Shown in pieces: positions 31,132 through 52,570 of a stretch of DNA of 63,004 nucleotides. The translations under genes and the position numbers were made by a program. Positions within the stretch are counted from its first letter, which is position 1. Each line of letters opens with the position of its first letter. Origin of the DNA: a virus (lineage: Duplodnaviria; Caudoviricetes); IMG/VR virus record IMGVR_UViG_3300024265_000049, positions 1-63,004 of that record; one strand, given 5' to 3'. The notes under the pieces are model-generated. The model was not told the origin of the DNA. It ran no database searches and was given only the letters and a program-made list of their open reading frames with translations.

Positions 31132-31208
31132 TGGTGGGGCGCCCGGGACTCGAACCCGGACGAAACGCATAAGGATGCGCGTCCTCTTTCCATTTGGGAT
31201 AACGCCCC
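31132..31208 (-). tRNA. tRNA-like gene with degenerate anticodon loop
   Basis: GGGGCGT/GCGCCCC acceptor stem, ACCA end, D-loop GG, CCGGG-TTCGAGT-CCCGG T arm; anticodon arm GCGCA-TCCTTA-TGCGT has a 6-nt loop. Confidence 0.7.
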
Positions 31209-42672: not shown

Positions 42673-44850
42673 ATGGAGTCCAAGGGTTCTGGAAGGGCAA
42701 AGACAGCGATAGAGTGGGGGCGACAATTCCAGGTTCAGGAAGCCACCGTTGGGCGCCCGGAAATCGGTCCCGGCCTCATCGAGTGGATCGCCCAGGCTCC
42801 GGGAGTTGGCAAAGTCACTGCAAAGGGCATCGTCAAACACTTCGGCGACATGGAAATCGAAGAACTTCTCGAGACGATCAAAGACCCTGCCCGTCTCGAA
42901 GAAATTGACGGTATCGGACCCGCAAAGGCCAAAGCCGTAGCCAGGGGATCCAGGAAACGAAGCGAGCGGGACCAGCTGACTATGGACTTGCGAGACAAAC
43001 ACGTCCCGCTGGCAGCCGTGGCGAGGGTTTTGAGGAAGTTCGGAGACGATGCCTCCGAAGTAGTCCGGCGATACCCCTACGGCCTACTTGACGTCAGGGG
43101 CATAGGATTCGCGACAGCGGACAAGATCGCCCTGGCTTCCGGCTTTGTGTCGTACGGTTCATTTCAACGGATACAGGCCGGGGTTGTCGAAACACTGAAC
43201 CAAGCAGCTGGCAGGGGCCACGCCTATCTGCCAATCAAAATCCTACTCAATGGCGACAAGGACAGGGGACTCAAAGGAGCAACCAGACTCCTGAAGCTCA
43301 AAGAGGCGACCATTGGCGGCTATCTGCGGAAAATCGTGAACTCCGGGAAGATCCACATCGACGGAAACAGTGTTTATCTAGACAAGAACAATCGTGAAGA
43401 ATCGGTGGTCTCGATACGGCTATCTGCCCTTTCGAAGGTTAAGGTCGCCACAATTGAAGCCGGCGCACTTCCGGGCCAGCTGATGACAATCACATCAAAC
43501 GAGACCGCCGTCACTCTCAGTCACGACCAGAACTACGCAGTGACCACCTCTTGCCACCAGCCGGTCATAGTGGTCACTGGAGGCCCAGGGGTCGGCAAAA
43601 CGGCCATAACTCAGGCAATCGTTAAAACATGGCATCGAGCCGGACTGAACATCGAACTGTGTGCACCCACGGGCAAAGCTGCAAAGCAGCTCGAAAAAGC
43701 CACCGGCTGCGAAGCAAAAACAATTCACCGGCTCCTCGAATATGGGCCGCAGGGCTTTGCCCGTTCCCGACAATTCCGCCTATCCTGCCAGGCCCTTGTC
43801 GTTGACGAGTCCAGCATGCTTACCACTAGCATGGCAGCGCGATTGCTGGATGCTATTCCTCTTGGTTGTAGGATAGTGATCGTTGGCGACCAGGATCAAC
43901 TTCCAAGCATCGGATACGGAGCGGTACTTCGAGACATCATAAAATCCGAGAAAATACCAGTAATTCGACTAAATAAAGTCTTCAGGCAATCCGCCGGGTC
44001 GCGGATCGTGACAAACGCGCACCGATTTATCAACGGGAAACCACTCGAGTACCCTGGTCACGGAGAAAATTCCGATTTCTGGATCCACAGAAAAAACACC
44101 TCTGCCGGGATTCTCGAAGCTCTCGACGGTTTCCTAACTCGCCATATCCCTGAAAGGTTTGGCCTTGACCCACTCAAGGACGTCATGGTCCTGACCCCGC
44201 TAAATGGTACCGAGCTCGGAACCGTTGCTTTGAACTTACGTCTCCAAAGCCTGCTAAATCCAGATGGCCAGAAGGTGGGAAACTGGCCTATCCGAGTAGG
44301 AGACAGAGTTATGCAGGTGAGAAACAACTACGCCCTCAAAACTTTCAATGGCGACGTCGGGGCAGTCTTGTCATGGGATCAGCGGAAGAAGGAGGCGTGG
44401 CTACAGTTCGAAAACAGGGACATCCTTTACACAAAAGAGCACCTGGAAGGGCTCCTCCCTGCCTACGCGTGCACAGTCCACAAGGCACAAGGAGGCGGGT
44501 TTCCAGCCGTAATAATGATCGTTCACGATGAACACAAATGGCACCTGAAGAGAAGCCTAGTCTATACCGGAATGACCAGGGCCGAAAAACTACTTGTCCT
44601 CATAGGGCAGTCGGCAACACTGACCTATGCCAGTGGCAATCTGAGAGACGCAAACCGTTTCACCGGCCTCGCCGAAAAATTACTTCACCCGCCATCGGAA
44701 CTTCCGGAACTCAACAGAGCCGAAATGATCAAATCTAAGCTATACACTTGCGACGCCTGCCAGCGCTCTTTCGCAAGCGACAGCCCGCAAATCTTCGAAT
44801 GCCCCGAGTGCGGAGAATCCGACCAAATCAGAGAACTTGGGAACGAGTAG
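42673..44850 (+). CDS. recD2: RecD2-family (SF1B) helicase with C-terminal Zn ribbon
   Basis: HhH repeats (GIGF.TADKIA), GGPGVGKT, APTGKAA, TIHRLL, DESSM, GDQDQLPSIG, FRQ, TVHKAQG and YTGMTRA. Confidence 0.9.
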   Translation: MESKGSGRAKTAIEWGRQFQVQEATVGRPEIGPGLIEWIAQAPGVGKVTAKGIVKHFGDMEIEELLETIKDPARLEEIDGIGPAKAKAVARGSRKRSERDQLTMDLRDKHVPLAAVARVLRKFGDDASEVVRRYPYGLLDVRGIGFATADKIALASGFVSYGSFQRIQAGVVETLNQAAGRGHAYLPIKILLNGDKDRGLKGATRLLKLKEATIGGYLRKIVNSGKIHIDGNSVYLDKNNREESVVSIRLSALSKVKVATIEAGALPGQLMTITSNETAVTLSHDQNYAVTTSCHQPVIVVTGGPGVGKTAITQAIVKTWHRAGLNIELCAPTGKAAKQLEKATGCEAKTIHRLLEYGPQGFARSRQFRLSCQALVVDESSMLTTSMAARLLDAIPLGCRIVIVGDQDQLPSIGYGAVLRDIIKSEKIPVIRLNKVFRQSAGSRIVTNAHRFINGKPLEYPGHGENSDFWIHRKNTSAGILEALDGFLTRHIPERFGLDPLKDVMVLTPLNGTELGTVALNLRLQSLLNPDGQKVGNWPIRVGDRVMQVRNNYALKTFNGDVGAVLSWDQRKKEAWLQFENRDILYTKEHLEGLLPAYACTVHKAQGGGFPAVIMIVHDEHKWHLKRSLVYTGMTRAEKLLVLIGQSATLTYASGNLRDANRFTGLAEKLLHPPSELPELNRAEMIKSKLYTCDACQRSFASDSPQIFECPECGESDQIRELGNE

Positions 44851-48349: not shown

Positions 48350-48787
48350 TCACCGCACACCCCCTAACAGTTCAGCCGCCTCGCGCGCCGTGGACACGTT
48401 TGTCGATGTCACATCATCGCCAACCCAAATCCCAAACCTGCCACACGCACGCCGATAGGCGATAATCTCGCCATCGTTGTCCATTAGCACCTTGCCGACC
48501 CCGAGAGCCGTCAGCGCCACCTCAAAAGCATTGGTAGCTCTCCAAGCTTCCATCTCCTGACGGTCGGCTTGCGTAGGTCGGTGCCCCTGAGACTCCCTGA
48601 GAGCTACCTGCCAAGCCTTCGGCCCTATCTCAGCAATGAGCTCCCCTTCGTTCAGGCTTAGGTAGGCTTCTTGCGTCTCGTCCCTGAACTTGGCATCCCG
48701 CTCAGTCTCGCCGGACTTCTCGGGCCAAATGCCAGACTTCCGGCACCTGGCCTCGAACGTAGTAAGAAAATCGTCTGCTGTGGCCAT
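48350..48787 (-). CDS. hypothetical protein (MATADD copy 1)
   Basis: GAGGAG RBS; N-terminus duplicated at 49451. Confidence 0.6.
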   Translation of the reverse strand: MATADDFLTTFEARCRKSGIWPEKSGETERDAKFRDETQEAYLSLNEGELIAEIGPKAWQVALRESQGHRPTQADRQEMEAWRATNAFEVALTALGVGKVLMDNDGEIIAYRRACGRFGIWVGDDVTSTNVSTAREAAELLGGVR

Positions 48788-48908: not shown

Positions 48909-49451
48909 TCAGGCGGCCTCTTCGAGGTCGACCAGCAGGTTCTGAAGGATGGCGACATCCGACTCGTCGTTGGTCCAGAAGATCCCTTTGCCGAGATCGA
49001 CCCAGCCGAGGCGCTCGAGGCGGTCCCGAGTGATCGGCGCTGACATCCGGCCGTCGACCCAAAGAGTCCAGACGGTCAGGATCCCATTCCTCATGTAGAG
49101 GCTGAGCTTGGCGGTTCCGACTTGTCGATTCTCGAAGATTGGCATCTGTGCTGGAGAAGCGGAGGGCAGCGCCCGAAGCTGCTCGAGGCGGTAAGCGTTC
49201 CAGTTTTTGTCCGTGAAGTGTCTAGTGCCGGCCATGTCTTTTTTCCTCGGGTTGGTGGTCTTCGGCCCGCTCAACCGACCCCGGCGGGTCGGCTCAGCGG
49301 GCCGGAGCCCTTCATTCAAATTCAGGTAAGCTTCTTGCGTCTCGTCCCTGAGCTTGGCATTCTGCTTTGTCTCACCGGCCTTCTCGGGCCAAATGCCAGA
49401 CTTCCGGCACCTGGCCTCGAACGTAGTAAGAAAATCGTCTGCTGTGGCCAT
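48909..49451 (-). CDS. MATADD copy 2 fused in frame to a second gene (internal start 49235)
   Basis: Duplicated 48-aa N-terminus, then a hairpin and GAGGA RBS before MAGTRHF. Confidence 0.5.
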   Translation of the reverse strand: MATADDFLTTFEARCRKSGIWPEKAGETKQNAKLRDETQEAYLNLNEGLRPAEPTRRGRLSGPKTTNPRKKDMAGTRHFTDKNWNAYRLEQLRALPSASPAQMPIFENRQVGTAKLSLYMRNGILTVWTLWVDGRMSAPITRDRLERLGWVDLGKGIFWTNDESDVAILQNLLVDLEEAA

Positions 49452-49479
49452 GATCTCGGGTTCCTTCTCTTCGTTGGTT
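49308..49479. repeat. ~170-bp imperfect direct repeat, copy 2
   Basis: See 48644..48814. Confidence 0.9.
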
Positions 49480-49780
49480 AACTGGCCCGTCCGCTCTACC
49501 ATGGCTTGCAGATCCCCGGGACGGTCCCTTTTGCGACCTCGTTTGCAAGCGTCCGGACCGGCCAGTCAGTGTGTATCTCGAGCCAGTCGGAGCTAGCGGT
49601 CAGGAGGTAAGCCGCGATCTTGTCGCAAGCGACGCGAGCGGGATGATCAGCGGGGGCGCCGGCTACCATCTCTTGCAAGGTTGCGAGCTCGGTTGTCATC
49701 CGGTCGCGAATAGCGGTGTTGGTAGCGTTCATGTCTTGATCTCCGTTTTGGTTTTGGCGTCGCGCCCGATTGCTAAATAC

Positions 49781-50213: not shown

Positions 50214-50560
50214 TCCCCAGCCCCCAAGCCCACTCCATTGCGCGGCAGGAACCGACCCGCCCCGGGCTCGCCGGCTGGCACACGGCCATAGGGGTACGGC
50301 TGGACCCGGAGCCGGTTGGACTCGCGGAAATAAGTGTCCGCCATCCCGTGCAACGCCGCCCCGAACTTGCCTCCATTGCGCTCCCTGACCCGCCTCAGCA
50401 GCGCCTCAGCCTCGGCCAAGACATTGACAGTCCTGCGGCACAGACTCACCGGCTCGCCGCTCTCAGGCTGGCAATACACCCGCGGAGGACCGGGAGTGCC
50501 TACCGGCAACTGGGGAACGTCCATCCCGCAGGTCAAGCAAGCAAACTGCAAACTTTCCAT
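50210..50560 (-). CDS. Zn-binding hypothetical protein
   Basis: CxxCG...G.P..YC...C; AGGAG RBS. Confidence 0.55.
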   Translation of the reverse strand: MESLQFACLTCGMDVPQLPVGTPGPPRVYCQPESGEPVSLCRRTVNVLAEAEALLRRVRERNGGKFGAALHGMADTYFRESNRLRVQPYPYGRVPAGEPGAGRFLPRNGVGLGAGE

Positions 50561-50623
50561 GACGAATCTCCTTTCAGGTCGATTACCTTAGAACCTATTC
50601 GCCGCCGTGACGCGACCCCTTGC

Positions 50624-51211
50624 CTAGCCTACCCCTTGGCGTCTTATCGCGCTGAGGGGGCCTAAGGGCCCCAGGGCTACTGCCAGCGCTTCGGCCATGG
50701 CTGGCCCCAGTTCATGGCCAGATCCCATTCCGGCAGGCTTGCCCTCCCAGTGGCACAGAACGAACCACGACATGGCAGCTATCGACACCTCGACCCGGAC
50801 CCCCTTGTCGTAAGCCGCTGCCATCACCTCAAGCGCCCAGGAGTCAGTAGGCTCCGGATACAGGGCGAAGACCAAGTGACTCAGCTTGTCCTTGATCTGA
50901 TCGACAAACGACCGACACTCTTCCTCAGTCTTCCGAACAGTCCAGAACGGCACCCCCTCGAGAGTCCGGCCGCCACACTGCCAAGCCTTCGGGGCAATGC
51001 CGAGGGCCTGGCAGACCATTGCCACCTTGTCGCCATAGTCCTTGGTCAACTGGAAGCGACCCCCACAGGTAGGACATGTTCCGCGCCTGATCGCGAGATA
51101 CATATCCACCTCGGCCCTTGCTAATCTCAGAGTGCCGCCCTCAGCATCCCGGCAAGCCTTGATTGCCCTGGTCTTCTCTCCCCTGTCTGCCAACTCCTTC
51201 CAGTACTCCAT
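50624..51211 (-). CDS. protein with N-terminal ribosomal L7/L12 CTD-like segment and CxxC
   Basis: GEKTRAIKACRDAEGGTLRLARAEVD resembles the L7/L12 consensus G.KI.AIK..R..TG.GLKEAK..V(E/D); AGGAGG RBS. Confidence 0.5.
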   Translation of the reverse strand: MEYWKELADRGEKTRAIKACRDAEGGTLRLARAEVDMYLAIRRGTCPTCGGRFQLTKDYGDKVAMVCQALGIAPKAWQCGGRTLEGVPFWTVRKTEEECRSFVDQIKDKLSHLVFALYPEPTDSWALEVMAAAYDKGVRVEVSIAAMSWFVLCHWEGKPAGMGSGHELGPAMAEALAVALGPLGPLSAIRRQGVG

Positions 51212-51319
51212 CGTTGCCTCCTTTCCTGTTTACCCGGCCATGAATCCCGCTTCCCTGAACCTCGCCTCGACCGGGCACGGTTCGCCCGCCTCGTGCAAAT
51301 CAGCCGCCGTCCCGTGATA

Positions 51320-52534
51320 ATTCCAGGCACCCAGCATCCCCGACTGTAGGCCCAAGTGAGGGTCTTTCAGCCTTCCAGTGATCCTCCAGCGACTCAGCCC
51401 CTATCTCTGAGCCTCGCTTGTCCTTTCCCGTAGCCCGCCAGGGTGGGCATGAAAACGCACCTACAGTTTTTTGGCCTGGACGTCGCTGGTCGCTACCGTG
51501 GGATCACATACCCACTCGTTGCCAGGAAATCGGAGCGTTACTCCCGACCGGGTCTTTCTAGCGTGGAGACACGCGCCGAGCACCGCAGGCTTGACGACTT
51601 GAAATACCCTTGAGATTTCAGGAGTCAGGGACAATCAACACTCCGTTTGCGGCAATTGGGCTGTAGCTCTGAAGCGCAGAAGAGGACTCTTGGAGGTGTG
51701 CTACTACGCCAAAAGCTCCAACGGTCAGCTTGGGAATCATCGGGGGTGCCGCGATCGGCATTCTTAACGAGCCTCGGTCACTCGCCCACCAACTCAAACC
51801 CGCAGTTCCTTTCGTACTGTGCGGGCAAACCCTTGCTTGCGCTACTTTCTTTCTTGGGGTCACGGGCTATCGCTAGATTGACTCTGCCCCCGGTGGAACT
51901 TCACCCGTTTCCGGGCTAAGAAGGGCCGGGTTTGTACTTGGCCAGTGTCGCTCGCTGCGGCCGTCCAGATTTCGCGCTCCGTGTCGCTACGCCGCAACAA
52001 ACTCTACACCGGGCACTTGCGGATGTCTCCGCAAGGTCGCTCCACAGGCGTCTATTCCTGCTTGAGGCGGGCATTTCCTCCACGCCTGCGCGACTGTCAA
52101 GGCGGCTGGTTGCTCCGGATCACCTGCGCAGGCATCCGGATAATACGACTCGCTACTCCTTAGAGGATGGCTGCTTCCAAGCCAACCTTCCCCCAAGGGT
52201 CCACTACTGCGCTTCAAAGATCTGCTCTCAAGAGCTTCATGATCATGGAGCTCTTGAGTCTTTCCAGGGTTCCACGCTACTTGTCAGCTGCGGGGCTATC
52301 GGCAAGGTGCCTTCCTCCCGTCCTCCATGGACGGCGCTGCACAAGTAGTGTGGAACCCTGGCCTATGACCGCTCCCTGTCTACCGCGTCGCCTACTACCG
52401 CCTAGCTAGCCAAGCGTCAGCCGCGCGAGACTGTGGCCTTCCCTGGGGTCTCCAGGGCACAGGGGACGCGCAAGCCGGACAGCTGGCGAGCTGCGGCAGG
52501 AGCAAGTGACTTAGTGACATAGGAAACGGTCATC
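51320..52534 (-). ncRNA. large structured ncRNA (GOLLD-like candidate) containing a split 23S rRNA H43/H44-like motif
   Basis: No credible ORF; many nested helices (52365-52377/52521-52533, 52264-52284/52341-52361, 52226-52258, 51667-51679/52207-52219, 51684-51696/52190-52202, 51343-51350/51460-51467, 51322-51328/51474-51480); GAAA tetraloop at 51904-51915; own promoter. Confidence 0.85.
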
Positions 52535-52540
52535 AAAAGC

Positions 52541-52570
52541 AGTCTACCGGGACAGAGCCCCTCGAGTCAA
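52541..52570 (-). promoter_or_regulatory. promoter of the large ncRNA
   Basis: TTGACT-N18-TAGACT; predicted +1 (~52534) coincides with the first base-paired segment. Confidence 0.65.

Follow-up and report, generated by a model that had tools for sequence, protein, structure and literature searches.

Does this phage locus encode a free-standing copy of the ribosomal GTPase-associated centre, and does the RNA act together with the L12-like gene that follows it on the same strand? The window, by which we mean the whole stretch of DNA analysed, is an entire 63-kb virus record (63,004 nucleotides) with a CheckV completeness of 73%. Since its genes include those for a tape-measure protein, a major head protein, a portal, an amidase and a primase-helicase, the window represents a tailed phage of bacteria, and this phage is a siphophage. 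The RNA locus is located among small minus-strand genes without assigned function; the longest open frame on the minus strand between 52560 and 51212 has at most 98 codons, and the two tRNA genes of the window lie more than 20 kb from the RNA. The features of the locus are compiled in Table 1.

Table 1. Coordinates of the RNA, its parts and the neighbouring genes in the window
Feature	Position	Strand	Basis
Sigma-70-like promoter match (9/12), predicted start near 52534	52541..52570	-	Consensus scan only
Three long hairpins directly upstream of the RNA	52226..52533	-	z -7.8
Complete self-closed RNA mimicking the 23S GTPase-associated centre; its 441-nt insert bears a sarcin-ricin loop	51667..52219	-	Fold z -4.1
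Closing helix, 5' arm, at the place of H42; pairs with 51667-51696	52190..52219	-	Inverted repeat I1 and fold
H43, 1082-1086 junction loop and 5' side of H44 (G1055-U1090)	52155..52190	-	28/37 identical to 23S; covariation
Insert between U1090 and G1091	51714..52154	-	Type B
Sarcin-ricin-loop-like hairpin in multi-way junction	51798..51826	-	7-bp stem and 12-mer (51818-51807)
UUUG linker and H44 hairpin (G1091-C1104), A1095 at 51705	51696..51713	-	23S comparison and covariation
Closing helix, 3' arm	51667..51696	-	Inverted repeat and fold
Probable 57-aa ORF, TTG start, GGAG 6 nt upstream	51461..51634	-	Between the RNA and the L12-like gene
Possible 36-50-aa ORF immediately upstream of the L12-like gene	51230..51382	-	Weak
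195-aa protein: N-terminal three-helix module, middle domain, C-terminal alpha-beta3-alpha domain	50624..51211	-	7-member alignment model
Degenerate bL12-CTD-like helical hairpin (aa 12-37)	51101..51178	-	Structural neighbours, profile, model
C-terminal domain (aa 120-189), dsRBD-like / phage ABA-sandwich-like fold	50645..50854	-	Z 5-6

The two ends of the phage RNA re-form the H43-H44 fold

The 23S GTPase-associated centre consists of the H42 tip, H43 and H44 (E. coli 1051-1108) and is the site of uL11 and thiostrepton. The initial annotation had taken the large RNA of the locus for a mimic of this centre, and our comparison bears this out: the H43-H44 mimic has one match in the window and none in 100 shuffles, and the halves 52190-52155 and 51709-51696, with the insert omitted, are identical to the Salmonella 23S record in 40 of 52 bases. 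Positions are given in E. coli numbering, with its landmarks placed on this Salmonella record. A 30-nt inverted repeat (52219/51667) closes the RNA; no kink-turn is seen in the closing helix, and position 1067 (52178) is a G. The insert of 441 nt is the longest among the 273 listed RNAs of the family described below. Each of its ends has a 3-bp stem with an adjoining GA/GA motif (type B), and beyond the 5' GA motif it diverges from the consensus of the long subfamily. The GA/GA motif at the insert base is kink-turn-like, which is a lead only. A 23S gene or gene fragment was rejected as an identity for the RNA, since the region 1051-1108 is split by 441 nt and Rfam gives no LSU match over the RNA; none of the Rfam covariance models matched over the RNA in the window.

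We place the end of the RNA at the closing helix (51667). A longer RNA reaching to about 51320 was rejected because the following gap folds like shuffled sequence (z +0.4) and holds two probable small ORFs; the exact sequence of the 57-aa ORF was absent from the protein collection searched. The L12-like gene, which had been placed about 110 nt downstream of the RNA, in fact starts 456 nt past its end, beyond these two ORFs. The further statement that no terminator separates RNA and gene holds, as no terminator-like site is present on the minus strand from 52585 to 50100. The three upstream hairpins (52533-52226) begin at the predicted transcription start and probably share the transcript of the RNA; no relative of them was detected among the family loci collected. 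Further upstream, the minus strand at 52684-52575 contains a promoter-like site (10/12, extended -10) and, some 75 nt beyond it, a hairpin resembling a terminator, which together may specify a small RNA.

A family of phage RNAs shares the split core

A blastn comparison with cultured phages yielded matches of 37-42 nt in unannotated gaps of XacN1, pf16 and UNO-G1W1, in the latter two within tRNA arrays. All three have a common design, in which H43 and the start of H44 are followed by an insert, the remainder of H44 and a closing helix. The family was collected by six pattern scans together with nine annotated records, and both halves were present in at least 30/33, 109/120, 92/120, 46/52, 85/117, 33/55 and 7/9 loci, respectively, amounting to at least 273 distinct family RNAs with that of the window included. 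The loci left out because both halves were not found (3/33, 11/120, 28/120, 6/52, 32/117, 22/55 and 2/9) include chance matches, genuine rRNA, loci at the ends of contigs and loci whose 5' half is remodelled, as in L389.

Letters that are invariant within the collection patterns were not counted as evidence, and for the covariation of the core each half was scored only in loci found through the other half (the first 148 parsed of 159). Pair 1058-1080 is formed by UA in 58, GC in 44, AU in 25 and CG in 6 of 138 RNAs, compensatory changes are also apparent for pairs 1057-1081 and 1054-1105, and the first insert pair is kept in all 148 parsed RNAs. The tertiary pair 1082-1086 covaries as well (UA 121, CG 88 and AU 30, together 239 of 257). 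While the letters of U1060-A1088 and of the 1071/1072 triple are invariant or nearly so, they are partly fixed by the collection patterns and covariation is impossible there. In the exposed loops, position 1067 is a purine in 268 and position 1095 an A in 252 of the 273 listed RNAs. The family hence has the H43 and H44 helices with the pairing of rRNA, and the two ends of the RNA re-form the H43-H44 fold. The phage RNA resembles the GTPase-associated centre in 40 of 52 bases, in its helix pattern, in the 1082-1086 pair and in the 1067/1095 loops; it differs in being free-standing and self-closed, in being split between 1090 and 1091 by the insert and UUU(G/A), in an A at 1101 and in a closing helix without the kink-turn of H42.

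The inserts differ widely in length (23-441 nt). A group I intron was rejected as their identity, as 12 of 106 RNAs have A instead of an invariant G at the end of the linker and inserts are as short as 23 nt. A tRNA gene is found within 1 kb of 160 of the 273 listed RNAs, the window RNA not being among them. The largest protein cluster in the RNA flanks spans 5 of 148 loci, so that no conserved partner gene is apparent. Rfam gave no match over the RNA in 20 family loci at the gathering score, nor in eight loop-bearing loci at E 0.5.

Several further observations concern the distribution and variety of the family. In GTDB genomes, the pattern matches containing the full RNA (33 of 55, L458-L512) are mostly on MAG contigs, which may be prophages or phage contigs binned wrongly. 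A second insert class is marked by a conserved GGCACCCC-tetraloop-GGUAAGG element at its end (L002, L003, L007, L012, L036, L515 and others) and is also present on an Aromatoleum plasmid; GGUAAG occurs near the 3' end of 49 of the 170 non-B inserts listed. In the short type-B members of the cultured jumbo phages XacN1, GAP32 and CBB (L001, L040 and L513), another hairpin takes the position that the loop occupies in long members. A contig from the same sample as the window matches only the H43 piece (window 52155-52195) and is either a further family member or true 23S.

Most long inserts carry a sarcin-ricin loop

The insert of the window RNA contains an element absent from the initial annotation, a hairpin at 51826-51798 whose 12-mer differs from that of rRNA only by its GAAA tetraloop. 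Judged by sequence, this sarcin-ricin loop is a second ribosomal site within one RNA and a new element. We analysed its occurrence in the long set, i.e. the 48 listed inserts of at least 250 nt that are of type B or loop-bearing; no collection pattern included the loop, and two of the patterns enriched type B in the set. The sarcin-ricin hairpin filter was passed by 37 of the 48 long inserts and by none of the 56 shorter type-B inserts listed, and the rRNA 12-mer is present with at most one mismatch in 31 and exactly in 16 of the 48. Since the filter required GUA and six of seven pairs in any of 16 registers, the pairing is partly by construction, and the evidence resides in the register and the pair types rather than in the pairing rate. 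The stem register is that of rRNA 2646-2652/2668-2674. Five stem positions are paired in 37/37 RNAs with two to four pair types each, and the C2658-G2663 pair is invariant among them. In an alignment of 23 hand-chosen RNAs of the 37, 95.5% of cells pair compared to 76.2% when shuffled and 30-49% when slid, and both sides change in all seven loop-stem pairs.

The loop is likewise enriched over controls: it was observed in 11 of 148 RNAs against a shuffle mean of 0.76 and maximum of 4, and the 12-mer, with at most one mismatch, has 33 occurrences in 49,985 nt of insert sequence vs three in 1,680,126 nt of flanks. The 37 loop-bearing RNAs represent about 27 k-mer lineages with a locus GC of 26-65%. 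One full-length member with the exact 12-mer is carried by pVL1_2 (44304-44651), a closed phage-plasmid of the cultured, non-pathogenic Methylobacterium indicum VL1 that also encodes a terminase. When inserts were compared with 23S by k-mers, only the sarcin-ricin segment exceeded the null (30/37 vs a null maximum of 14); look-alikes of H41/H42, H69, H94 and H97 were dropped since they did not, and no k-mer match to H42 above the null was found in the inserts. The AGUA/GA bulged-G motif, the C-G-closed GNRA loop and the 7-bp stem are present, and in constrained folds of most members the loop belongs to a junction at which its own helix meets a basal helix and a variable arm. The appended domain thus presents a sarcin-ricin loop on a stem of H95 length in a junction laid out like H94-H95-H96, and structural selection acts on both this loop and the H43-H44 core across many phage lineages. 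The phage loop is like 23S H95 (2646-2674) in its 12-mer, C2658-G2663 pair, 7-bp stem register and the multi-way junction below; it is unlike H95 in its unrelated stem letters, its varying tetraloop, a position 2666 that is mostly A, and in sharing one small RNA with the uL11 site.

The loop varies between members. Its tetraloop is GAGA in 21 of the 37 loop-bearing RNAs, position 2660 is G in 10, and position 2666 carries C, the letter of the bacterial record, in one. Position 1067 in the core is G in 17 of the 37 compared to 24 of the 236 loop-less listed RNAs. In about ten long inserts the loop is eroded or absent. As 236 of the 273 listed RNAs lack it altogether, the loop is not needed for the function of the core; the RNA of pf16, a phage infecting Pseudomonas putida, is one of these loop-less members. 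The kink-turn-like motif at the insert base has its 5' CRA and 3' GAG together in 22 of 157 unselected RNAs and on one side in 3 + 3. No covariation was detected beyond its 3-bp stem and none in the C-stem, hence a uL10 site is no more than a lead.

The closest relative of the window insert among the matches listed is L389:1520-2030, located right after a tRNA gene; the 12-mer of its loop is exact, but its H43 is remodelled. Matches to the 12-mer also occur in the short inserts of L468 and L480, and a loop match with three mismatches in the short non-B insert of L134 was treated as chance. In a phage with a loop-bearing RNA, an SRP-RNA-like match at the gathering score lies within a tRNA array (L316:1173-1216, minus strand).

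Possible functions of the RNA

Among 50 RNA-bearing genomes, none encodes uL11 over the cut-off or uL10, and one, a provirus, encodes an EF-type GTPase. Since the phages lack uL11 and uL10, the partners of the RNA would be host proteins. We tentatively favour, as a good possibility, that the RNA imitates the factor-binding centre away from the ribosome, loading host uL11 and acting as a decoy for translational GTPases. The RNA would be transcribed with its neighbours, trimmed to the closing helix like the RNA of tRNA arrays, and bound by host uL11. The long subfamily would then display two rRNA surfaces that are jointly read by EF-G, IF2 and the EF-Tu/tRNA complex, and might thereby capture and divert such factors during infection. 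The added sarcin-ricin loop would accord with the earlier suggestion that the RNA engages translational GTPases, and we infer that its addition is most sensible if the target reads both sites. According to excerpts of one study, the sarcin-ricin loop is the affinity and activation point of translational GTPases, isolated fragments of it bind EF-G and IF2 with micromolar affinity, and A1067 and A2660C/G2661A mutants do not significantly lower EF-G GTPase activation (PMC5829649); the variation of the phage RNAs at 1067 and 2660/2661 thus falls on positions that these excerpts describe as tolerated for EF-G activation.

The decoy reading has to be weighed against the RNAs that lack or alter the loop: the 236 loop-less RNAs and the roughly ten long inserts with an eroded or missing loop, the G at 1067 in 17 of 37 including the window RNA, the restriction of GAGA to 21 of 37, and the single C at 2666. 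Moreover, loop-E modules of the AGUA/GA kind recur widely in structured RNAs, and a ribosome-like distance between the two sites is presumed.

Alternatively, the RNA might only sequester uL11, leaving ribosomes short of the protein and the stringent response dampened, or act as a protective cap, with the loop as a generic folding or oligomerising module. Loss of uL11 is known to relax RelA. Most listed members are indeed loop-less, the insert lengths vary widely, tetraloop variants and eroded loops occur, and a GNRA hairpin is found elsewhere within the same inserts. However, a generic module requires neither the exact rRNA 12-mer, as present in 16 of 48 long inserts, nor the same 7-bp register, and the exposed 1067 and 1095 loops are largely conserved. 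Furthermore, the RNA has no match to H38, the main anchor of RelA in excerpts of the above study (PMC5829649). We thus regard a function limited to uL11 as somewhat unlikely.

A further reading, which we consider unlikely, is that the RNA serves as bait for ribosome-inactivating toxins, or for defence effectors, whose site of cutting or modification is H43-H44 or the sarcin-ricin loop. By analogy, such a decoy would parallel phage tRNAs that offset tRNA-cutting defences, and the tRNA genes within 1 kb of 160 of the 273 listed RNAs would agree with it. Toxins are known to act on both sites: a bacterial toxin ADP-ribosylates 23S helix 44 (PMC8661411), and the sarcin-ricin loop is the target of alpha-sarcin and ricin (PMC5829649). 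To our knowledge, no anti-phage effector has been shown to attack either site. However, the depurination target 2660 is G in 10 of the 37 loop-bearing RNAs, and bait for a single enzyme requires neither two sites nor an elaborate scaffold.

The GTPase decoy thus remains the reading that we favour. A more far-reaching form of it, in which the long subfamily would be a natural minimal factor-binding centre of about 400-550 nt that, with host uL11 bound, arranges the sarcin-ricin loop and the 1067/1095 loops as in the ribosome and serves as an RNA activator of GTP hydrolysis by EF-Tu or EF-G off the ribosome, appears doubtful to us and quite improbable.

The L12-like gene looks like a bystander

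The same-strand gene with the L12-like segment reported by the initial annotation is present as the 195-aa ORF 51211-50624, whose protein family is rare (seven members found). Of the proposed L12 likeness, the part that stands is a three-helix module with L12-CTD-like neighbours. The Atlas model of residues 1-46 has such neighbours at a TM of 0.72-0.85 over 42-46 residues; its ten listed neighbours, five of them PF00542-containing clusters, all stay below the threshold for naming. When 13,514 frames were scored with a profile of five other L12-like segments from phages, the module came second (E 0.28), and the alignment-based model (pLDDT 81) contains N-terminal helices at 3-9, 13-24 and 28-43. 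The full alpha/beta fold of the L12 CTD does not stand: this model has no strand of at least three residues in the N-terminal module, residues 1-44 have no match in Pfam, PHROGs or PDB sequences, and the protein is below the Pfam cut-off for PF00542. A single-sequence structure prediction was unusable (pLDDT 42). In a wide fold search, bL12 was absent from the best 50 matches, which were filled by matches to the C-terminal domain, and the resemblance of this domain to dsRBDs and phage ABA-sandwich proteins is middling (Z 5-6). Ribosomal bL12 is tethered via uL10 by an N-terminal dimerisation domain, and no such domain is seen in the 195-aa protein. A protein-alignment search of viral contigs gave 143 pattern matches and no confirmed relative.

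If RNA and protein belonged together, L12-like genes should accompany the RNA elsewhere, the check that the initial annotation had itself put forward. This expectation failed. Within flanks of up to 2.5 kb (197 loci with at least 700 nt downstream), an L12-like gene is present at 1 of the 272 other listed loci and at none of the 36 other loop-bearing loci. Genome-wide, PF00542 matches occur in 5 of 50 RNA-bearing records, at least 18 kb from the RNA, and in 4 of 25 records of a second, partly overlapping set; one of the latter is a weak match, the only one among 14 loop-bearing records, and the others lie about 2 kb, 7 kb and 130 kb from the RNA, the record with the 2-kb distance having been chosen because of the flank result. 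As PF00542 misses the module of the window itself, degenerate L12 copies at a distance from the RNA may have escaped these counts.

That RNA and protein form one phage stalk-base particle, as had been suggested, is in our view very unlikely. While both lie on the same strand without a terminator-like site between them, the N-terminus has the L12-CTD-like neighbours and profile rank given above and the C-terminal domain has a dsRBD-like fold, the two do not co-occur, 456 nt and two probable ORFs intervene, the module is found in two of the seven protein-family members and is absent from five, and no uL10 is encoded in the 50 genomes. In addition, the C-terminal domain is acidic in the window protein (3 K+R vs 6 D+E). 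In the accessible part of PMC6375957, phage bL12 domains are mobile inserts in varied contexts, and the distribution of the L12-like gene fits theirs. The window protein is like them in carrying an L12-like segment within a larger protein that has homologues without it, and unlike them, as described there, in consisting of a helical hairpin only and in lying under all profile cut-offs. The bL12-like protein therefore looks like an unlinked passenger and a bystander to the RNA.

Relation to known RNAs

A non-functional captured 23S remnant or an assembly chimera, to which the strong sequence likeness to 23S might point, is largely refuted and can practically be set aside, since in 23S some 1,600 nt separate the pieces, which occur here in a new order with compensatory changes in many lineages, family members are present in cultured phages as well as on a closed phage-plasmid, and one contig of the probable source run, which is not independent, covers 50400-52461 with no differences.

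Leaders of ribosomal-protein operons that mimic rRNA, such as the L10 leader, act in cis on their own operon. The phage RNA shares with them the mimicry of a protein-binding site of rRNA; unlike them it is phage-borne, has no fixed downstream gene and has no Rfam leader match. GOLLD and ROOL are likewise large, structured phage RNAs that are often near tRNA islands, but the accessible part of PMC12286853 describes them as RNA-only cages and mentions no mimicry of an rRNA site, and the phage RNA has no Rfam match.

Mimicry of tRNA by viruses is well known. In the full-text literature searched, which is mostly without subscription journals and excludes supplements, no paper describing an RNA like the present one was found; lists of candidate phage RNAs in supplements could contain the motif. 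Within this literature and Rfam, a free-standing phage RNA that imitates two functional sites of the ribosome is new as a kind, and a viral RNA that rebuilds the factor-docking centre of the ribosome from two distant rRNA elements is undescribed as far as searched. The finding points to an unrecognised translation front in the conflict between phage and host, and it offers a small natural scaffold with which to ask whether the uL11 domain and the sarcin-ricin loop suffice for GTPase binding or activation.

Two further observations were made elsewhere in the window. A tRNA-like gene at 31132-31208 (minus strand) has an anticodon unassigned by ARAGORN and no Rfam call at the gathering score. The adjacent minus-strand ORFs 48350-48787 and 48909-49502 have a near-identical stretch of about 45 residues (MATADDF...) in common, a local duplication.
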